Shown here: positions 38,316 through 60,933 of the stretch, piece by piece
Layout: each line of letters opens with the position of its first letter
Numbering within the stretch: the stretch's first letter is position 1
Assembly (NCBI GenBank): GCA_022813865.1
Contig: JALDZX010000005.1
Location: forward strand, 186,001-250,000
Reading direction: 5' to 3'
Origin: Xylographa opegraphella
Taxonomy: Eukaryota
DNA length: 64,000 bases
Translations under genes and position numbers: made by a program
The notes under the pieces: generated by a model
What the model saw: only the letters and a program-made list of their open reading frames with translations
Database searches by the model: none
What the model was told of the DNA's origin: nothing

Positions 38316-39568
38316 TCAATTCGTTTCAGCTATTTTATCCTTCGGCCACTGTATCGCGACCTGCCACTCCTGCGGAAGTGCTCCGCTCACAGCATCGACC
38401 ACCCACCGCCCCCACGTGCCGAACCACCAGCACTCCCGACTGTCGTGCAGGATGACGCCGTAATGGGCCAGTATGGCCAGGGCCATCGGCTCCCGCCGCG
38501 CCAGCGCGACCGGAAACGCACTCGTGATCATGATGGGCCACGAGAAGGCGCGGGCTCTGCTGCTCATGGACGTGAGCTGCTGCTCGAACACGGAGAGCAG
38601 GTTGCGGATGACGGAGCCGTAGACCTCGCGCACCAGCTCGTCCTCGGTCGCCACCCGGTTCCGTTCCGCCAGGGCGTGAAGAGCACCGACGGCGTCTGTC
38701 GGCGCCGGGAGCATTGCCAGGTCTTGCTCAAAGGCGATGAGCGGGCCGAGCTTGCTCCGAGCGATCGAGCCCCTCGCGACGTCCAGCACAGCATAGATGC
38801 CTCGCATCAGCTTGAAGATGGCGAGGAGGTCTGCGATCGGGTCGGCTGGCGGTGTGCCGGACACCTGGGGCAGGGCGAAGGCGATCATGGCGGCTACGGC
38901 GGAATAAGCGAAGACGGCGGCGCTGTTCTCCTCCGTGAGGGCGCTGAGCGTCGGCCGGAAGAGGATGATGGCCATGTCCTGATGACGGACGGCGACGTCG
39001 TAGTAGAACCGTTGCTGAGAAGGATGGGAATTGGCCAGGTGGAGGGCAGTGATGGCCAGCAAGCCGTGCATCAGGAACGGGTGGGATTCGGCTTCCTGGG
39101 GGATGACGTCCTGCCAATACACATTGAACGACGTCCTCCCGGCGAGGAGTAATGAGGTCGTGAGAGCGTAGTGGCGCATCAGGCTCAAGTCCAGAAGGAA
39201 CGCGTCCGTCAACACGTGCGGTTGAGCATTGGGTGGGACTACACCAAGGGTACCAGGGGTGGATGGCGTTGACAAGCTCGCCGCGACGTCTTCTGGTTGT
39301 GCGGGATGATCATTCGGGCTGCACGATGCACCGTGCAGAGGCTCTCGTGCATTGGAGGGATCTGCGCTTTCGCCAGAGAATTCGCACCGCCGTCGCTGCT
39401 TCACACAATGGCCGCAGACGGGCCGCTTCTCGTCGCACTGTGCTTCCGCAGAGCTGATGAGCCAGGGGAGCATTCGGCAGCGGAGACACCACCTGCCTTG
39501 ATTCTCTTGCTTTTACATTGAGCGCAGCCGAAACGCGATTTGACGTGCGATTTTCGGAGTCCCGTCAT
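38316..39568 (-). CDS. Zn(II)2Cys6 transcription factor, Upc2-like family
   Basis: RKSHVKSRFGCAQCKSKRIK | intron 39438-39496 with probable GC donor | CDEKRPVCGHCVKQRRRC. Also LDLSLMRHY, PFLMHGLLAITALH, WWFGTWG. An alternative ATG lies at 39607. Confidence 0.9.
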
Positions 39569-49805: not shown

Positions 49806-52800
49806 ATGGCTCCGTCAGCTACTACCGCGCCAACGGACACCAACTGGACCCATGAGTTCGATACCGTACGACGCGAGAAGCTCTTTCGGAACCCCCCCGA
49901 AGACCGAACGCCATATCCGCTGCTCGCCGAGACCATCAGACCTCACATCGACTCCTTCAATGCCATCTTCGAGAATAATAAGCTCATCGATGCTGCCCTG
50001 AAGGATATCGGGACCAGGGTCTTCCTGCAGCCCGATGAAACACCCCAGCAGCGATCCGCCAGGGAGCAGGAAGGCCGACCTTCGCGCAAGAAAGACCGGC
50101 TGAGTATCCGGATACGGGATGTCTTCCTGGAAAAGGCAGTCTTGCCAAGCAATAACAAGTTCAGCACCAAGAATCGAGACATCTATCCCAGCGAGTGTCG
50201 AGAAAGGCACGCTAGCTACCGTGGCAAGTTGAGGGCCAGGATCGGTTATAGGATCAACAATGGAGACTGGCAGGACGCCGTGCGTGAGCTGGGACAGATT
50301 CCCATTATGCTCCGTAGCAACAAGTGCCACCTGGAGAAGTTCACGCCAGCCAAGTTGGTGGAACGGAAAGAGGAGGCTGAGGAGCTGGGTGGCTATTTCA
50401 TCATCAATGGCAACGAGAAACTCATCCGCCTCTTGATAGTCTCGAAGAGGAACTATCCTATGGCTATCATCCGAAATTCCTTCATCGGACGAGGTGCGGG
50501 TTACACCAAGTTTGGCATACAGATCAGATCTGTGCGTCCAGATCAAACTTCTCAGACGAACGTCCTTCATTATCTGAGTGACGGGAACATCACCTTCCGT
50601 TTCTCGTGGAAGAAAAATGAATATCTTGTTCCAGTCATGATGATACTCAAAGCTCTAACAGAAACTAATGACAGAGAAGTATTCGAGGGACTTGTGGGTG
50701 CCGCGGGCTCCAAAGGTGTCGAGAACACGTTCATGACAGATCGAGTTGAACTGCTCCTGCGGACATACAAAGCCTACCAACTGCACGGCAAGGCCAAGAC
50801 TCGGGCATACCTGGGTGAGAAATTCAAGACAGTACTTGATGTGCCTGAGAATATGCCCAATGAGGAAGCAGGTACCGAATTCCTTCGCAAAATTGTGCTC
50901 GTCCATTTGGGCAACGTCAACGTGACCGAAGCACAAGACGCTGATAAGTCCAAGATGCTACTATTCATGATTCGGAAATTGTACGCCCTGGTTGCGGGTG
51001 ATTGTGCGGTCGATAATCCCGATGCAGCCTCCAATCAAGAAATTCTGCTTGGAGGATTCCTGTACAGCATGATCTTGAAAGAGAAGCTGGAAGAGTGGAT
51101 CAGATCGATTGCTATAGCGCTCCGGTCTTGGTATGACAATAATGGTCGCAAGTCGTTTACGGACCCTGTGTTCCTCAAAGACTTTGGGCCAAAAATCATG
51201 AGAAGGTCAAGCGAGGCTATAGGAGGAGCTCTTGAGTACTTCATGTCTACAGGTAATTTATCTAGTCCATCGGGACTTGATCTGCAGCAGACATCAGGTT
51301 TTACCGTTGTAGCCGAGAAAATCAATTTTTTCAGATTCATCAGTCACTTTCGTATGGTGCATCGAGGAAGTTTCTTTGCTCAGCTCAAGACCACTACGGT
51401 CCGCAAACTGCTCCCAGAGAGCTGGGGCTTTCTATGTCCTGTCCACACTCCCGACGGAAGTCCCTGCGGCTTGCTGAACCATCTTGCCCATCAATGTAAA
51501 GTCACAACTCGTGATTCAGACGTGTCCAAATTGCCTGCTCTGCTTGCACAGATGGGGGTGACCTCGTCATCTTCCGCTTCTGTTGCCGACAGTGTTGTTG
51601 TACAGCTTGATGGCCGTATCCTAGGCTTCTGTCATCCCAAGCAAGCTCGCATAATTGCCGACACGCTGAGGTATTGGAAGGTGGAGGGAACACATGCGAT
51701 ACCGCTCGAACTCGAGATAGGCCATGTTCCAAATTCGAACGGTGGGCTTTATCCCGGTTTATACCTGTTTGCTCATGCGGCACGGATGATACGGCCAGTC
51801 ACATACCTTCTACTCGATAAGCAAGACTACGTCGGTCCCTTCGAGCAGCCATACATGTCCATCGCTTGCCGGCCTAATGAGCCCGAATCCAAGAACTCTA
51901 CTCATATGGAAGTCGCCCCGACCAATATCCTCTCCATCGTCGCCAACCAAACGCCCTTTTCCGACCACAATCAATCCCCCCGAAACATGTACCAATGCCA
52001 GATGGGAAAGCAAGCCATGGGAACCCCCGGTTCCGCCATCCGCTACCGCACTGACAACAAATCCTACCGTCTGCAAACCGGGCAGACCCCCATCGTCCGG
52101 CCACCACTCTTCAACGCATACGGTCTCGATAACTTCCCCAACGGCATGAATGCTGTTGTTGCCGTCATCTCGTACACTGGCTATGACATGGACGACGCCA
52201 TGATTCTCAACAAATCCGCGCACGAGCGCGGCTTCGGCCACGGAACCATCTACAAAACTAAAGTCGTGCACCTCGACGAAACCGGCAGGTCCGCTCGCTC
52301 CAAAAGAGCCATTTCCAAGCTCTTCGGCTTCGCTCCCAACTCCCGCGTCTCACCCTCCATCGCCCAGCATCTCGACCAGGACGGCCTGCCCTACATCGGC
52401 ACCATGCTCCAGGAGGGCGACGTCCTGTGCGCCTCTCACTCCGTCACCCACGACCCCGTCTCCAACACCTACATCAACCGCGACGCTATCACCACGCTCC
52501 ATAAGTACAAAGACGCCGAAACCGCCTTCGTCGAAGAGGTCCGCCTCCTCGGCGCCGAAAGCGGCGACCAGCCCTGCCAAGCCCTCTCCATCAAGCTGCG
52601 CATCCCACGCTCGCCCGTCATCGGCGACAAGTTCTCCTCGCGCCACGGGCAGAAGGGGGTGTGCTCGCAGAAGTGGCCGGCAGCCGACATGCCCTTCTCG
52701 GAGAGCGGGATCGTGCCGGACATCATCATCAACCCGCACGCGTTCCCGTCGCGGATGACGATCGGCATGTTCGTCGAGTCGCTCGCGGGCAAGGCCGGCG

Positions 52801-53465
52801 CCCTGCACGGCATCGCGCAGGACTCCTCCCCCTGGCGCTTCTCCGAGGCCTCGCCCGCGGGCGACTACTTCGGCGAGCAGCTCCGCGCCGCTGGCTACAA
52901 CTACCACGGCAACGAGCCGATGTACAGCGGCATCACGGGCCGCGAGTTCGCGGCCGACATCTACGTCGGTGTCGTCTTCTACCAGCGCCTGCGGCACATG
53001 GTCAACGACAAGTTCCAGGTCCGCACCACCGGGCCCGTCAACGCCCTCACGGGCCAGCCCATCAAGGGCCGCAGCAAGGGCGGCGGCATCCGCGTCGGCG
53101 AGATGGAGCGCGACGCCCTGCTCGCCCACGGCGCCGCCTATCTGCTGCAGGACCGCCTGCTCAACTGCAGCGACTACTGCCGCGCCTGGGTCTGCAAGGC
53201 GTGCGGCAGCTTCCTCAGCACGCAGCCGACCGTGGCGCCGGGCGGCAGGAAGGGCGCGAGAGGGACCGGCATCGTGAGGTGCAGGCGGTGCGCGCGCCCG
53301 GCGGCGGGCGGGGAGCAGAAGAGTCTCGTGTGGGAGGACGGCACGGGCGGGCGGTGGGTCGGCGGCGAAGAGACGACGGTCGTGGCCGTGCCGGGGGTGC
53401 TGCGCTACCTGGACGTGGAGCTGAGTGCGATGGGGGTGCGGATGCGCTTCAATATCGAGCCGTGA
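49806..53465 (+). CDS. RPA135: RNA polymerase I second-largest subunit (A135), intronless
   Basis: GGYFIINGNEK, VRKLLPESWGFLCPVHTPDGSPCGLLNH, SYTGYDMDDA, GDKFSSRHGQKG, GGIRVGEMERD and a C-terminal zinc site. Confidence 0.97.
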   Translation: MAPSATTAPTDTNWTHEFDTVRREKLFRNPPEDRTPYPLLAETIRPHIDSFNAIFENNKLIDAALKDIGTRVFLQPDETPQQRSAREQEGRPSRKKDRLSIRIRDVFLEKAVLPSNNKFSTKNRDIYPSECRERHASYRGKLRARIGYRINNGDWQDAVRELGQIPIMLRSNKCHLEKFTPAKLVERKEEAEELGGYFIINGNEKLIRLLIVSKRNYPMAIIRNSFIGRGAGYTKFGIQIRSVRPDQTSQTNVLHYLSDGNITFRFSWKKNEYLVPVMMILKALTETNDREVFEGLVGAAGSKGVENTFMTDRVELLLRTYKAYQLHGKAKTRAYLGEKFKTVLDVPENMPNEEAGTEFLRKIVLVHLGNVNVTEAQDADKSKMLLFMIRKLYALVAGDCAVDNPDAASNQEILLGGFLYSMILKEKLEEWIRSIAIALRSWYDNNGRKSFTDPVFLKDFGPKIMRRSSEAIGGALEYFMSTGNLSSPSGLDLQQTSGFTVVAEKINFFRFISHFRMVHRGSFFAQLKTTTVRKLLPESWGFLCPVHTPDGSPCGLLNHLAHQCKVTTRDSDVSKLPALLAQMGVTSSSSASVADSVVVQLDGRILGFCHPKQARIIADTLRYWKVEGTHAIPLELEIGHVPNSNGGLYPGLYLFAHAARMIRPVTYLLLDKQDYVGPFEQPYMSIACRPNEPESKNSTHMEVAPTNILSIVANQTPFSDHNQSPRNMYQCQMGKQAMGTPGSAIRYRTDNKSYRLQTGQTPIVRPPLFNAYGLDNFPNGMNAVVAVISYTGYDMDDAMILNKSAHERGFGHGTIYKTKVVHLDETGRSARSKRAISKLFGFAPNSRVSPSIAQHLDQDGLPYIGTMLQEGDVLCASHSVTHDPVSNTYINRDAITTLHKYKDAETAFVEEVRLLGAESGDQPCQALSIKLRIPRSPVIGDKFSSRHGQKGVCSQKWPAADMPFSESGIVPDIIINPHAFPSRMTIGMFVESLAGKAGALHGIAQDSSPWRFSEASPAGDYFGEQLRAAGYNYHGNEPMYSGITGREFAADIYVGVVFYQRLRHMVNDKFQVRTTGPVNALTGQPIKGRSKGGGIRVGEMERDALLAHGAAYLLQDRLLNCSDYCRAWVCKACGSFLSTQPTVAPGGRKGARGTGIVRCRRCARPAAGGEQKSLVWEDGTGGRWVGGEETTVVAVPGVLRYLDVELSAMGVRMRFNIEP

Positions 53466-53970
53466 GAGGGGACAAGCGCGCAGCGTTTTCGATGGAAATA
53501 ATCGGTCTCGGGCGGAAGCGGGTGCGCATATCTCGCTAGCCTGTTATCTCGCGCGGCATCGTAGATGCAGGCCAGTGACTGCAAAGGTGTCCTTGTTCAA
53601 CCCAGTAGATATCCCAGTTTCCGAACCGGGTGCCGACGTGTTTCTTCCATTCATTACCTTACCTCATCTATTCAATGACCACCCCATCTTCTAGTTAGCT
53701 AGCCCTCTCCTCTCTGCTCCCGCGGACGAAAACTCGTCACTCCCCTACAGCTCACTCCCTTTTCAATAGGGGAGGAATACCTCCGTCCAGCCATCTCGGC
53801 TACTAGAACCAGGGCATAAGGTACGGTAACTCTACGCCCCGCCACACTTACGCGCACGGGGTCCACCTGCCCCTCTTATGAACCTTACCGTCTGCATTTC
53901 ACTCCGTTTCAGCCCGTCAATGCCAAGCACCGCTGCCCAGACGTGGTCTCATATCCCCCTCCCCTCCCAT

Positions 53971-55042
53971 TCAACACCCCCATTCCCACCCCCACCCTTC
54001 CTCCACAGGTGACGACGCCCCCGTCGAGGGCGAGGGCGAGTCCGTGTTTAGAGACGAGGGCGGGCCGCTGTTGAGCGGGGAGAGCGGGGAGAGCGCGTTG
54101 GTGGGGGGCGGCTGTTGCTGCGTGGCGTAGATGGTAGGGATGTGGGTGAATGCGACGAAGATGTCGATGCTCGGGTCGGTGCTGGGGGAGGGGGTTTGTG
54201 GGGGAGCAGGTCTCTCAGCTTCCTCATCGACCGGAGAAGATTTGGTGAGTGTTCCAGGCACCTGCTTCAAAGGCACATGCGCGAACCTCCGCGTCGGAGC
54301 AAGATTCCGGTTGATACTCCCCCCAGAATATCGCTCGAGCAATGGTTCCGACCCCTCCGCCTCAGCCGACCGCGTCTCCTGACAAACACGCAAACCGTGC
54401 CGGCACTATTCCAGAAGTGAGCCCGGACACCGGCAACGCGTGTTCGAGAATAAGTCTACCGCTTACAGCTTTCTTACTCTTCCTGCACACCTCACACGCG
54501 CCCTTGCCGCGCACAATCGCGACCTCGGCTTTCCGCACAGGACTGTAGGACCGTCGTTTCGGGGCAACGGCCGGCTTCCCCGTCTCGAGCGAGAAGCATG
54601 ATTGGCCAGGGTATACGGTTCGAGAGCGAGACACCCATGGTCGCGAAGCGCGGTCGGGGAGGTTGAAGATACATTTCTCCACTAAACCCATTGACTGTTC
54701 TTGGACGCAAACGCTATCATCAGGGTTGCGAAGTTTGTGTGACGGATTTCTCACTGCGCCGGAGCTGTTTGTCTCCAAACCGCCGCCCTGAAAACCGCCA
54801 TTTCCCCCAACTGGCGGAGGTAGAGTGCCAGCGCTGTCGGTTAACGCCTCTGAAGACAGATGCGGACATAAAGGGCGCTGCAACCGAACATCCCGAACCG
54901 TGGGCTCCGGCAAGCTGAACGAAATGTCTTGTGAGTAACCATCTTGCCGATGATTACAGACCGAGCAGAAGTCGAAGATTTCTTGATTATAAGGTCCATC
55001 TCCACAAGAAGCGCAATACCAGAAGAGACGCGCGGAACTCAT
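53971..55042 (-). CDS. Putative zinc-finger regulator, paralogue B (WYCxxC..CxxC finger plus CxxC-x6-CxH motif), 2 exons
   Basis: MSSARLFWYCASCGDGPYNQEIFDFCSVCNHR..FSLETGKPAVAPKRR..RGKGACEVCRKSKKA | intron 54406-54466 | CRHGLRVC.. continuing into ORF 53971-54393. Confidence 0.75.
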
Positions 55043-55504
55043 AGTCGCGATGCCGCGTGAAGGGTCATGCATAGAATAGTTTGCGGCGCAATAAAACAAG
55101 AACTCATAACGATGCTTAATGTCACGAAGTGCGAGTAAGATTTCAATCATAGAAACTGAAGAACGACTGGAACTCTCATTATTATTATGTCAATGCGGCC
55201 TGACCGAGGTTCACCGATTCCCAAAAAGGAAATGGCGCATTCGTCCAATCATAATAATCCCCGATCGATTAGTTTCTCATCACTTCGCCGGGACGGTATC
55301 CACAGAGCGATTGGTTGAAATCCCTGAGACAAGATACATAGCATATTCAGGAGCATTTCCGAAAAGTCGTGAAGTAATTAATGAGACACAATTGGATTCA
55401 TAACGCAGACCAAGTCTATTAATACAAAATGAACCTCAATCTTGGCGGAAACGAAGATTGAGTCTATGTTGGCGCGAAGAGTAATGAGAAGCTTTGATGA
55501 GGTT

Positions 55505-57446
55505 TTACTGCGCGGTATACTCTTTACCACTGTTGTCCGATGGAGGTGTCAGGCTTGAGCCGCTAGTTGAATTCCCACTCTCCACGGAGAAACCTGAATG
55601 ACAGGGGACCTTCCGGCCAGCTTCCCAACTCAGATCAACATCCATCTCAGCAGACTTCTCGATATCATCATTGTCCAGCCATGGAAAGTCGCCGTAAAGA
55701 TTGAGGTCCCCAGGACCATACGGTTCCAGAAGCTCAATATCCGGTGTACTTTGTGACTGCTGTCGCGTTGCGATAGCCATTGAAAATGCCTGTCCCGGCA
55801 CAGTCGCCGGATTTGCTGGCGTATATGCTCCATACCATTGTGAGTAATCTTCGTCGAGTGTAACCTGGCTCTCAGTAGTTGTGTGGATTTCTCGCACCTG
55901 GTGACACTGAATATCCCGCGAGCTCTGAGGCGACTGTTCAGGACAGATAGCCCATGCGGAATCGCTCGGTCCCGTATCAGGAATGCCCATTAACATCGGT
56001 GTGTTCGCGGCTTGCGAGGCGACGTATTGCAACGGGTTGTGATCGTCGATACCTCTATTACCAGCTGTTCTTGTTTGAGAAAAACTTGGAGAAGCAGTAT
56101 GAGGATCGTGCTCGTGACTCGCATTATTGGCAATTGGCACCAACAATTGGTCCGCGCTGGTTCGTGTACCATTACACGGAGTGGTGTGTGTATTTCTGGC
56201 GTGCTCGCTGTTTGCAATCTCGGCCCTTCCAAGAAGATCGGGATAGTGAGGTCGGATTGGAAGAAAATGATCAAATTGATCGACATCCAGCGCGCGGGTA
56301 CCGTGGCCCAGTGTTGTTGCTATTTGACTCTCAGGCAGTACTTCCCGAGACAAGCTCGAACCCACCGGTATGCTTGGACCAGAAGTAGGCGACGTGGTAA
56401 GAGGGTCGACTCTGATACGTGTATAGTTGGACGTAGGAAGCTTCCGGGCTCTTCTGTCTCCGTACCGAATGCTCGATGTTCTCCGGTTCGGGGAGGTCGT
56501 GGTCTTTGTTTCTTCCGAAACACTTTCTTCGCCGGTGGAAATACTGTCAATCTCGTGTCTCCTACGCCTCGTTGGGTAGTCGAAAGCGGTTCGGTTTCGA
56601 GCACTTGCTATCGTCGTATCTTCTTGCTCCCGTAAGCGATGGAGGCACTTTGCTATTCAGTTAGCAACTGAATACTCTATGCGCCTGCAGCACGAGGCAA
56701 GTCTTGCTTACCTTCTTTTTCCGTGCTCTACACGAATCGCAAGCCCCTTTTCGCCTTGTATATGCTGTTTCAGACTTGCTTTTGGGGCTTAAAGGTCGTC
56801 TTGAAGGAGCTATTGCGGGCTCACCGGTCTCCAACGAGAAGCTGTGTTCACCAGGAAAGCGAATGCGCGCTGGAAAAATGATAATCTCTTCATATCTTGT
56901 ACTATAGCCAGTATTTTCCGGATGGAAAAGGTATCTTTGTAGCTGTGCTATTTTGTCCTCCGACCCAATGCGAAGAATGTTAGGTTCACACAAAGAATCG
57001 TCTTTCATTATCGGATTGATCGATGAGACGAGGCTGCTTTTGTCGCTCAAAGCAGAAGCAGGAAGTGTCTTGGGATTTCTGGTTTCAGGAACATTCAGAT
57101 TTGAGCTCGGTATGGTCGCAACGGATTTAACAATATCCACGTTTTCGTATTCTTCCGAAAGAGCAATGATATCCTTTGACGTAGGTATGCTAGGTTGTTC
57201 CATGGTGTTGTCGTCGTTTTTGATGTTATCTCGACTCGAAGGCTGTACCATACTTGCAGACTCGATGGTTCGTGAACTAAGGGTACTTTTCGGCGATGGT
57301 TCTCGCCAGCGGTCCTGGAGGTAAAAAATTTCCCCTCTTGTGTTGTGACTCCGCCGGCGATGACAAACATTACAATGGTCATTAAGGACTGCAGAGTGAG
57401 GGCCGTAGTCACACCATTCGCAGTACCAATGCACTCCTCGACGCAT
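55505..57446 (-). CDS. Putative zinc-finger regulator, paralogue A, 2 exons
   Basis: MRRGVHWYCEWCDYGPHSAVLNDHCNVCHRR..FSLETGEPAIAPSRR..RRKGACDSCRARKKK | intron 56648-56711 | CLHRL.. in frame with ORF 55505-56365 (acidic tail). Confidence 0.75.
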
Positions 57447-58636
57447 TACTCAAGCAACAGCCACAAATCTTGTGACAGTAAAGTAAATAATTCAATGACA
57501 AGCAATTAACAACGGAGATTTCGTGTAGAACTAGAAAGCATGTATATATATATAGGTGTAATAAGTTCATAGGATTATTCACCTTAAATAGAAATTCTTG
57601 TTTTAATTGTTGATCGGGATACCCATCTTCGCCGATAGCCGTAAATGGATTAGTTCAACTCGGCATAGATTGAACCAATAGCGCAGCGCCTGCGATACTC
57701 TTGTTTGCGATCTTCAATTTCATCATGGAGAACCGTACTAGGTTGCAAATTGACTGGTGATCGTTCGTCGCCAGGCAATTCCAGAGCTCTACCTTTTGAT
57801 GATGTTTTCAAACCCCTTAACGCCTGTGTGACGTTTCTCTGGCAGAACTCAGTTGACATAATGGCGGGATTGAGGACAACAAAGCCATGAAAGAGTGAAC
57901 AGAGAAAGCAGTTCGACGCCTCATATTGTACTTTGACAGGGGCTGTTAGATCAGTATTCATTGCGTTGGACGCTTTGCCTAGCATAGGGTATGCCAATGC
58001 CAAGTTCTGTATTGTGAATACCACGCTGGGAGACCCCTCAAGGTTGCCTCATTAGGCTGCCTTTCATGCGTATAGACTTGTGATAGATGGATATCAGTTG
58101 ATATAACAGTCTGAAGGACTATCTACCTTCGTAGAGTAGTAATCTATAAGAAGTGCACATATAAATTACTGTCCCAAAGTGATGGGAATTAAAATTATCC
58201 TAGATGTCTTAATGGGTCAAGCAAGAATTGGGTCATACAAACGATCACGGCAAAATAGTAGATCATTGTATCAGAGTTTCTGTCATTTAGAGAGCTGTCT
58301 GATCCTGGAGATGGTTCAGCACAACGAGGAAGAGATGTTTGACCGATGCGCTACCTGAGGCAGCCACAAACACTGTGGCTCAATCGTGATCTTAGTACCT
58401 TACGGTTTCGGCCTAGCGCGGCGATTCTGCCTACACGCCATTTATTGTTGTTGATAAAGAAAATAAACCCAAATCCCATCACTAGTCTGGACTCAGAGCA
58501 GGGAATCTGCTTCAGAAACCTCTGATATAGATCACTGACAGTTCTCTCTCTCTGACTGGTCTCCGATCGTGCGCGGGTTCAGTGTCTCAGCTGTCAGCAC
58601 GTCTCCACTGAAAGCTACGGAGCTTTCTTTCTCAAC

Positions 58637-60933
58637 ATGGGATCCGTTTCTGATGATGAGCTGGAGTACCTATCCCCTTCTTTCGATCCGGCCAAACTGA
58701 CAGTACCGAAAATCCGAGCCATCTTCGTGTCTCACGATATTCCATATCCTGCGTCTGCGAAGAAACCTGAGCTTATCGAGATCTTCAACCAACAGCTCGT
58801 CCCTAAATCGCGAACGATCTTGGCAGCCCGGTCTCGAATCTCAAGGACAGCCAGACGCATTGTTGATATGCCAAGTAGTGAGGAGAGTACGGTCAGTGGG
58901 GATACGGATGACACAGCGACGATGCCTCCACCACCGGAGCCCAGCACCTCGAGGAAAAGGAGATCAAGCACGCGTGCATCTACTGCAGACAGCGCGGAGA
59001 AGTATCCGGTTTCGACAAGAACGTCAAGCAGTCGAAAGAGTGCTGTAAAACACCCAAGAGCCTCAGATACTGAGGTCGACCCAGATACTGGTTTAGAGCA
59101 ACCAGTAGTCCGCAAAAGCCGCAAGAGTAATGTCACGCCAACGGTCAAGGTTGAAGAAGTCGAGAATCCAGCACGACGGACTTCCAGGCCACCTCTAGAA
59201 GCAAGTCCATTCAGCGACGAGAATCCTTTCCAAAAAGGCAGCTCGCCGTTATATTCGGAAGAGAAGAGGCGGAAAAGTGGAGGAACAAGTACTGATAAGA
59301 GAAAAAGCTCATCACGGCGAAGAACCATAGAGCCGAAAAGCAGCACAGAAACACCTGTGCCAAAACATCAAGATGGAACAGTGGTGCCATCGTCAGATAC
59401 CTTTAAAGCCCCTGTCGCGAAATATAAACCCCGGAAAGTGAATCCTGAACCGGTGGAAACCATCGAAGCAGGCGAGGAATTCACCGCCGAAGAGCAGCTC
59501 TCCCTAGAGGCCGAAAGAGCCGCCAACGGTGAGCAGGACCTCCTTCCTCCTCGGCGCATCAGTCGCTCCAAGCGCTCCACCAACGGCTTCCGCTCCGCCC
59601 CTTGGATCGTCCTCACTACGATCCTCGCTGGCTACGCTGCTTGGTATCGCAAAGAGAAGATTGAAGTCGGCTACTGCGGCATCGGCCAGTCCACTTTAGA
59701 CGGTCCCGTCGCTGAATTGCCCACTTGGGCTGCTATCCTGCAACCCCAATGCGAGCTATGCCCTAATAACGCATTTTGCTCTGCGAACATGGAGGTAGTA
59801 TGTGACAGCAAGTTCGTCCTCAAGCCGCACCCGCTTTCCCTCGGCGGATTGATTCCCTTAGCCCCAACATGCGAGCCGGACGGCGACAAGGGCCGCAAGA
59901 TCAAAGCCGTCGCCGACAAAGCCATCAACGTGCTCCGCGAACGTCGTGCCCAATGGGAATGCGACACCGTTATCGAGAAAGACGGCACGCCCGCCACCGC
60001 AGTCGAGATCAGCGAACCGGCCTTGAAAGCAGAAGTAAGCACCAAGCGCCGCAAAGGCATGACGGACGCGGAATTCGAAAAGCTCTGGGAAGACGCCATC
60101 GGCGAGATCCTCAGTCGCGAGGAAGTCACCGACTCCGGCGCCGACGGAAACGCGTACGTCCCCCCTCCCTATTTCCTCTCACCACCCATCCACCGTCTAC
60201 CGCACCCTTTTCTAACTCGCTCCTCACTAACCAGCTCCCCCCTCCGCCCTACAGAAGCCCTTCCCACAACGCGCACCCTCACCGTCTTGCGTCCTCCTCC
60301 CTCGCTCGCCTCCCCCTCACCTGCGCCCTCCGCCGCCGCACGCTCCGCACGCTGGCGCGCCATCGTCTCCAGCTTGGCCTTCTAACCGGCCTCACCACGC
60401 TCGCCCTCTACCTCCGCTCCCGCCTCCTGCGGCACCGCGCCGACGAGGCGCGCATCCCCGCGCTCGTGGCCTCGACGCTCGACCGGCTCGCCACGCAGGC
60501 GGTGCTGCACGCGCGCGGCGCGCAACCGGAGCCCTTCATCAGCGCCGGCCAGATGCGCGACGACGTGCTGCGCGACGAGTTCTCCATCCAGCGCCGCGAC
60601 GCCATCTGGAACAAGGTCCGGGCCGTCGTCGAAACGAACGCCAACGTGCGCGCGAGTGTCAGGGAGGGCCGCCTCGGCGAGGTCAGTCGTGTCTGGGAGT
60701 GGATCGGCAGCATCATGGCGCAGGAGGAGCGGCTGGACGCGGAGAGACGCGGGAATGATTGGCGCGCTGGCGACGCCGCTGCGAGGTATGGCTATGGGCA
60801 CGATACGGCGACGGAGAGGGAGAGGGAAGCGCCGCGCCCGGAGTGCATTGGTGCCGCGAGGCGGTGGGGGGAGGACACCCCCGAGGGGGAGGGCAATCGC
60901 AGGAGGTGGGATGAGGGCCTCTCGGTGGTGTGA
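58637..60933 (+). CDS. SRC1: Inner nuclear membrane LEM-like protein Src1/Heh1 (HeH + MSC domains), 2 exons
   Basis: YLSPSFDPAKLTVPKIRAIFVSHDIPYPASAKKPELI (HeH), FSDENPFQKG, WYRKEKIEVGYCG, PTCEPD, intron ~60154-60254, VETNANVRASVRE..VWEWIG. Confidence 0.92.

Follow-up and report, generated by a model that had tools for sequence, protein, structure and literature searches.

The locus and gene models

Xylographa opegraphella is a lichen fungus of the Lecanoromycetes, and the 64,000-nucleotide (nt) stretch of its genome analysed here (assembly GCA_022813865.1, contig JALDZX010000005.1, positions 186,001 to 250,000 of the forward strand; hereafter the window, with positions counted from its first letter) carries a pair of adjoining minus-strand genes, referred to as gene A (336 amino acids, aa) and gene B (625 aa). 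Each encodes an N-terminal four-cysteine ribbon and, further along, a core that ends in three cysteines and a histidine (C3H), and it is this core, a putative half-cluster relative of the Gal4-type Zn2Cys6 domain, that is our main concern. The features of both genes are listed in Table 1.

For gene A, joining 55042-54467 to 54405-53971 reproduces exactly the database protein P0001 (336 aa; hypothetical protein MMC26_001085), with 100% identity over exon 1. Two upstream in-frame ATGs, at 55150 and 55072, were rejected because the orthologues start at 55042. For gene B, joining 57446-56712 to 56647-55505 gives 625 aa, of which the last 560 are P0003 (MMC26_001086), a database model with the same splice and a start 65 residues later, and thus without the ribbon. 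We favour the longer start since the frame from the ATG at 57446 is open, a stop codon lies two codons upstream of that ATG, and 25 of the 26 relatives that have both modules carry the ribbon Trp at residue 2-12. The B-like proteins P0004 and P0005, as annotated, likewise lack the ribbon. The database model, which lacks the stretch 57446-57252 (minus strand), uses a downstream Met in a strong start context, and the two starts could yield isoforms with and without the ribbon. In the gene B intron, a TAG acceptor 5 nt upstream of the AAG would break the reading frame.

Table 1. Features of genes A and B, in positions of the window
Feature	Position	Strand	Description	Remarks
Gene A exon 2	53971..54405	-	C-R-H (54405-54397; the third Cys and the putative His ligand), then a short helix, an S/T/P-rich tail and the stop	
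Gene A tail motif	54127..54165	-	D-I-F-x-x-F-T-H-I-x-x-x-Y	Kept in three Xylographa orthologues
Gene A intron	54406..54466	-	61 nt, GT..TAG, phase 0, immediately 5′ of the third-Cys codon	
Gene A exon 1	54467..55042	-	Residues 1-192: ribbon, linker, core through sixth residue after CxxC	Orthologues P0006 and P0008 begin at the same Met
Gene A core	54467..54613	-	PG..FSLETG.P block, basic arm, helix 168-180, CxxC, predicted recognition helix 184-189	
Gene A ribbon	54956..55021	-	W-Y-C-x2-C-x2-G-P-x8-C-x2-C, residues 8-29	Predicted local confidence (pLDDT) 92-93 over residues 11-30
Gene B exon 2	55505..56647	-	C-L-H (56647-56639), long low-complexity tail, stop	
Gene B tail motif	55535..55552	-	[LF]-T-P-x-S-[DNS]	Recurrent in long relatives
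Gene B acidic-aromatic segment	55658..55747	-		Conserved in orthologue; also in several relatives
Gene B intron	56648..56711	-	64 nt, GT donor, CTAAC branch motif, AAG acceptor	C-L-H likewise at the junction of P0003, P0004 (X. bjoerkii) and P0005
Gene B exon 1	56712..57446	-	Residues 1-245, including 65 N-terminal residues absent from the database model	Start agrees with ribbon Trp position in relatives
Gene B core	56712..56858	-	PG..FSLETG.P block, basic arm and helix, CxxC with complete Gal4 R-x2-K-x-K	
Gene B ribbon	57363..57428	-	Four-Cys ribbon, residues 7-28	Same G-P-x8 spacing

Shared blocks and a conserved intron position

The original prediction, made from the DNA letters alone, described a ribbon and a core block common to both products, separated and followed by linkers and tails of no obvious similarity, and this description proves accurate. 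When block similarity was judged against shuffled sequences (500 shuffles; 200 for the tail), the N-terminal 40 aa scored 75 (shuffle mean 21.9) and the core 169 (mean 26.2), with none of the 500 shuffles as high in either case; the linkers scored 26 (mean 26.7, 280/500 shuffles as high) and the tails 41 (mean 41.3, 92/200 as high). The likeness of ribbon and core is thus genuine, whereas the linkers of A and B, and likewise their tails, are unrelated.

In both genes a 52-residue core ends CxxC-x6-C-x-H, and an intron interrupts it ahead of the third Cys. As had also been predicted, an intron after CxxC-x6 is common to A, B and the two canonical Zn2Cys6 genes of the window (first Cys at 39526 and 12803). 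The canonical gene at ~38.3-39.6 kb has a 59-nt GC-AG intron at 39496-39438 (minus strand), at the same position between Lys and Cys. Neither A nor B has the six-Cys pattern CxxC-x6-C-x5-12-CxxC-x6-8-C, their three cysteines being followed by x-His. A complete cluster could not be generated by alternative splicing with any acceptor downstream of either donor, and there is no intact CxxC downstream on the coding strand, in any frame, of either gene.

Over the 52 codons of the core, A and B have 30 identical residues, only five of which are specified by identical codons. Nonsynonymous divergence (dN) is 0.38 in the core, where synonymous difference (pS) is 1.01 and saturated, and dN is 0.47 in the ribbon; between orthologues, 43/54 residues are identical in the core and 47-52/105 in the linker. 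These comparisons support the view that A and B represent an old split whose conserved blocks have been under purifying selection.

AlphaFold2 modelling of A gives two confident islands, at residues ~1-40 and ~150-195, in a chain that otherwise has low confidence (predicted template-modelling score 0.25), which suggests that the two blocks may be independent modules. The core modelled alone has pLDDT 82-92 over residues 41-80; its FSLETG block forms a small hairpin, which is followed by a basic arm in extended form and three helices (58-70, 74-79 and 86-99).

The N-terminal ribbon

The ribbon spacer is eight residues in 36 of 37 ribbons. A conserved histidine after the ribbon, another feature of the original prediction, is not borne out; in A the His is at +2, in B at +1, and one or the other position is His in only 13/37 ribbons. 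The proposed likeness to RanBP2 fingers holds for the fold, at weak scores, and fails for the sequence. The ribbon model superposes on NZF/RanBP2 fingers (ZRANB2, Npl4, TRABID, TAB2) with a root mean square deviation (rmsd) of 1.4-1.9 Å over 27-31 residues, and a fold search gave rmsd 1.4 Å to 3g9y, 1q5w and 5af6, with E >1 and Z 2.1-2.4, level with other four-Cys ribbons. The general form W-x-C-x2-C ... C-x2-C is common to our ribbon and the RanBP2/NZF group (which includes RBM5). The RanBP2 consensus is W-x-C-x(2,4)-C-x3-N-x6-C-x2-C, and it is found in one of the 92 stored proteins (P0046) and not in P0001. The ribbons described here differ: 12 residues, Gly-Pro among them, separate Cys2 from Cys3, the Asn of the consensus is missing from its place, and an R-x-D-x-Y-A tail is conserved. 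The Pfam scan gave no zf-RanBP match for them. A lead from the ESM Atlas connects the ribbon to unnamed ascomycete proteins of 54-58 aa at 0.83, under the 0.9 mark.

The ribbon is a mobile fungal module (examples are P0059, P0078, P0089, P0066, P0069, P0088 and P0068) that has no Pfam match above cut-off in the members scanned. It occurs in two forms, one with four Cys and the R-x-D-x-Y-A tail, the other richer in Cys with extra Cys and His, and several proteins of 150-190 aa carry one ribbon of each form.

A family of relatives

A database profile search of the kind proposed with the original prediction, using a profile of six rows against 1.84 billion representative proteins with E up to 0.001, yielded 90 proteins, 44 of them at 1e-10. 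By pattern, the core is present in 74, the ribbon in 37 and both in 26, so that the predicted two-module architecture does recur but is not obligatory. Some small proteins have the ribbon and no core; ribbons also occur in tandem, and one closes a C2H2-like protein. C3H cores, in turn, may lack the ribbon or adjoin caspase-like or homeodomain-like regions, for which the Pfam matches are weak and under the cut-off. Ribbon and core are therefore separately mobile. In five C3H proteins the N-terminus is no more than ~50 residues from the core, which argues that the C3H site is independent of the ribbon.

Directly after CxxC-x6, 53 of the 74 cores run on with Val or Ala, probably by read-through into a GT or GC intron; P0002/P0006 and P0049/P0043 provide examples of read-through and spliced forms side by side. 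Three of the read-throughs begin with Ala, also suggesting GC donors. Among the 20 spliced cores that continue with Cys, 17 have C-x-H, two have six Cys and one is different; one further core fits no class, and two in-frame read-throughs also go on to C-x-H. In P0075, a protein with additional Cys/His motifs, the core ends C-P-W-D-H-H, another half-cluster variant.

The ESM Atlas leads for both core and ribbon point to Ascomycota. A pattern scan for close relatives in 185,579 prokaryotic genomes gave no true match; the sole pass, one of 70 pattern matches, arose by chance, out of frame and interrupted by stops, within another gene, and was rejected.

The original prediction called this a probably uncharacterised regulator family. 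Neither A nor B has a Pfam or NCBIfam family above cut-off, and no description of the domain or family was found in the open-access full texts searched, where domain tables in supplements could already list such proteins; a generic label may exist in InterPro, CDD or PANTHER. The family thus appears uncharacterised, and both zinc binding and a regulatory role are predicted properties.

Relationship to Gal4-type clusters

A direct link between the A/B core and Zn2Cys6 is provided by relatives that have the same upstream core followed by a complete cluster. P0047 combines a ribbon, the core and the tail motif with a canonical cluster (CxxC-x6-C-x8-CxxC-x6-C); it aligns to the family profile with an hhalign probability of 99.5, and was a match of the search rather than a row of that alignment. 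P0057, also a six-Cys protein, passes the Pfam threshold for Zn_clus, and its alignment to the family profile has probability 96.7. These two proteins indicate that the A/B core is a half-cluster C3H relative of Zn2Cys6, as had been proposed.

Gal4-type Zn2Cys6 proteins (PF00172; Gal4, Lac9, Put3) have in common with A and B the CxxC-x6-C spacing, R-x2-K(-x-K), an intron before the third Cys, and acidic tails. They differ in that A and B have x-His in place of Cys4-6, stay below the Pfam cut-off, and carry the N-terminal ribbon; their cysteines, moreover, are preceded by a conserved hairpin, arm and helix. The Zn_clus gathering score of 21 bits is not reached (11.5 bits for P0003, no match for P0001), and this is an insensitive test as P0047 is also missed. 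Of 30 proteins scanned, eight of the C3H type match Zn_clus over only the first 13-16 of its 39 positions (from position 2), and none of the eight reaches the cut-off. The Pfam scans of A/B proteins gave no Fungal_trans or middle-homology domain, and an ESM Atlas lead connects the core to a Zn_clus cluster at 0.84, under the 0.9 mark. Because they lack the six-Cys feature, A and B are not Zn2Cys6 members, and it is a Zn2Cys6-like mode of working that we infer for them.

A six-Cys subgroup with R-x-x-G-A-C-L-R-C (P0057, P0077) has a PG..F[ST]L.G block, an R-R-x-x-[FY]-S-P-x-R-x-x-E-V helix, and the intron as in A and B. It departs from A and B in keeping a CxxC and a far sixth Cys after the intron, and there is no ribbon in the 14 rows seen. 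PANTHER PTHR35392 probably covers proteins of this kind.

The residues between Cys2 and Cys3 point the same way. In Gal4-type clusters this segment contains R-x2-K-x-K, for which PMC4025492 gives residue roles and natural substitutes; B has the whole motif, and in A the final Lys is replaced by Ala. We counted the Gal4-equivalent positions across 77 picked cores, one of which is a false pick. The position of the base-reading Lys18 is Lys in 68/77, His in five and Arg in three, the same substitutes as in that paper, and Gal4 position 15 is Arg or Lys in 70/77. Gene models made independently for three Xylographa species have the same C-x-H junction, as do many further proteins.

Proposed mode of action and alternatives

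In Gal4, the first three cysteines hold one zinc in common. We think it fairly probable, judging from sequence, that A and B are nuclear, sequence-specific DNA-binding regulators in which the first half of a Gal4-type cluster has been turned into a single-zinc Cys3His site. One Zn(II) would be held by Cys1, Cys2, Cys3 and the His at Cys3+2, the latter replacing the fourth Cys of Gal4, and the helix between Cys2 and Cys3 would read a G/C triplet through its Lys18 equivalent. The basic arm and the preceding helix would add contacts that offset the lost second half, with binding probably as a monomer at an extended site. The flexibly linked N-terminal ribbon is predicted to bind a second zinc and to dock a partner rather than DNA, and the acidic or short-motif tails may activate transcription or set turnover.

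Several observations weigh against this DNA-binding scheme. First, the equivalent of Gal4 Lys20 is Ala in A and in 31/77 cores. Second, the candidate His ligand occupies the position of Gal4 Lys23, a DNA contact according to PMC2896094, and therefore could contact DNA and not zinc. Third, sequence matches to solved Zn2Cys6 proteins are all non-significant: the only Protein Data Bank sequence matches of P0047 are Put3 and Gal4 (E 2.8-8.2), and the only one for the family profiles is Lac9 (E 0.44-0.92). Fold searches with the core model (Foldseek, VIA) gave neither a Gal4-type nor an Amt1 structure, the best Z being 2.7, an absence that excludes nothing. Fourth, the 53/74 cores that are intron read-throughs do not make exon 2 visible, and the 17:2 ratio of C-x-H to six-Cys endings is biased towards C-x-H as the search profile itself held C-x-H; an exon-1-only profile ranks P0057 above eight C3H proteins, with P0047 last of 22. 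Finally, P0053 and P0054 keep the upstream block and basic helix with no CxxC cluster after it, and their N-terminal ribbon is altered.

The best surviving alternative, which we nevertheless regard as unlikely, is that the C3H module is a zinc-stabilised interaction or nuclear-import surface that does not read DNA, and that the proteins are co-regulators or RNA- or ubiquitin-binding adaptors recruited via the ribbon or a partner factor. It would account for the resemblance of the ribbon model to RNA- and ubiquitin-binding fingers (ZRANB2, Npl4, TRABID, TAB2), for the absence from A of half of the cluster and of one phosphate-contact Lys, and for the presence of the module in caspase-like and homeodomain-like proteins; there is a precedent in Cuf2, a regulator with a partial zinc module that may need a partner, as stated in PMC4795683. 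However, the base-reading Lys is the best-kept non-Cys residue between the cysteines, its substitutes are those of DNA-binding clusters, and the same arm and helix precede the full six-Cys clusters of P0047 and P0057. A mere import signal is unlikely because import alone would not fix the position of the base-reading Lys.

It is quite improbable that two chains (A-A, B-B or A-B) pool their half-clusters into a single Zn2Cys6 in trans, an arrangement that would explain why the genes have stayed adjacent. Three Cys per chain are half of six, and in the Gal4 cluster two of the six Cys are bridging (PMC7614390). The pair seems to be kept in X. bjoerkii, where the orthologues of A and B have locus tags 008573 and 008575, two apart with one locus tag between, and contigs of equal length. 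Support for adjacency is, however, confined to Xylographa, flanking domains differ in many members, and the near-invariant His at Cys3+2 would be superfluous. A model of a homodimer with zinc, built without an alignment, has a score of 0.11 and is evidence for neither side.

There is also a slim chance that the module belongs to the line of the copper-fist zinc module (Ace1/Amt1; PF00649) and not to Zn2Cys6. The copper-fist zinc module has the pattern C-x2-C-x8-C-x-H and a single zinc. Ace1, Amt1, Mac1 and the Cuf proteins have a Cys3His module of the same ligand order with a similar start, and theirs is a fungal DNA-binding module too. Against this, the spacing is x6 and not x8 in A, B and all 19 spliced C3H cores (cores that were selected by that spacing), and six-Cys relatives have the same upstream core and intron position. 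Pfam scans of 30 and 43 proteins gave Zn_clus and no Copper-fist, with filters that drop weak matches. Copper-fist proteins further have a (K/R)GRP hook, a minor-groove motif (PMC4795683), and copper clusters following the zinc module, both of which are absent from A and B.

An artefact, with true mRNAs encoding six Cys by another splice, or decay, with the genes being truncated relics, is very improbable: gene B does require an unusual AAG acceptor, and the A tail is 125-190 residues shorter than in the X. vitiligo and X. bjoerkii orthologues, but no six-Cys splice or downstream CxxC was found, independent models have the same junction, and the reading frames are open and under purifying selection.

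Beyond the DNA-binding scheme for A and B themselves, it is possible, if doubtful, that the family is a widespread and overlooked class of fungal transcription factors with a single-zinc Cys3His half-Gal4 domain and its own N-terminal reading helix, which arose, and perhaps reverted, by swaps of the exon after the Cys3 intron, and which would bind as monomers with a specificity unlike CGG repeats. Zn2Cys6 has been treated as an all-or-nothing six-Cys binuclear unit, and transcription factor catalogues rest on models that the A/B proteins fail; a conserved Cys3His half-cluster with six-Cys kin would, if real, be a missed class of fungal regulators. Whether the first Gal4 subdomain can fold and read DNA alone is directly testable with 70-residue peptides, for which P0047 and the C3H members provide a natural matched pair. 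Were the wider view correct, the Gal4 cluster could be halved and still work, and the family would be either a structural bridge or a case of convergence between Zn2Cys6 and the Ace1/Amt1 zinc module.

Evolutionary history

An unrooted tree was built from 75 exon-1 cores over 86 columns, with 17 of the 92 proteins omitted as having no usable core. The A lineage lies in a (starred) 23-row clade that includes a 14-row group of CLRC-type six-Cys proteins, and B lies elsewhere in the tree. A single clade of A, B and their five closest relatives is rejected by the approximately unbiased test (p-AU 0.016), a test posed after the tree had been seen and with few columns. A and B thus appear to be deep paralogues of different sub-lineages rather than plain sisters produced by a single local duplication, so that of the predicted retention after an old duplication the age and the selective constraint stand and the sister relationship does not. 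Their adjacency may reflect either an ancient tandem or a later neighbourhood.

The direction from six Cys to C3H is suggested by the breadth of canonical Zn2Cys6, the tree being unrooted, and the intron before Cys3 is likely the seam where six-Cys and C-x-H endings were exchanged. Independent origins of the six-Cys form, for which the tree needs two changes, are not claimed, as a single six-Cys clade is not rejected (p-AU 0.32).

Tails and neighbouring genes

Although the tails of A and B are unrelated to each other, each has conserved segments (Table 1). The gene A tail motif is a candidate partner-binding or activation helix, and the acidic-aromatic segment of gene B a candidate activation domain. 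The [LF]-T-P-x-S-[DNS] motif of gene B, a candidate phospho-site or degron, is present in 9/29 long relatives against 0.22 expected, the motif having been picked after inspection of these sequences.

There is no third paralogue in the 64-kb window, with only weak low-complexity matches, no Rfam family in 53000-59000, and no meaningful DNA repeat. Upstream CGG pairs are in no clear excess (4 against 2.4 and 5 against 6.9). The pair is flanked by a gene for the second subunit of RNA polymerase I and by a Man1/Src1 LEM-domain gene, and there are no obvious biosynthetic genes adjoining. The polymerase gene (49809-53465, plus strand) is intronless and markedly richer in G+C towards its 3′ end (0.64 at 52-54 kb versus 0.50 at 50-52 kb). 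Gene B and the Man1/Src1 gene are divergent and have a common 1.2 kb upstream region (57447-58640).

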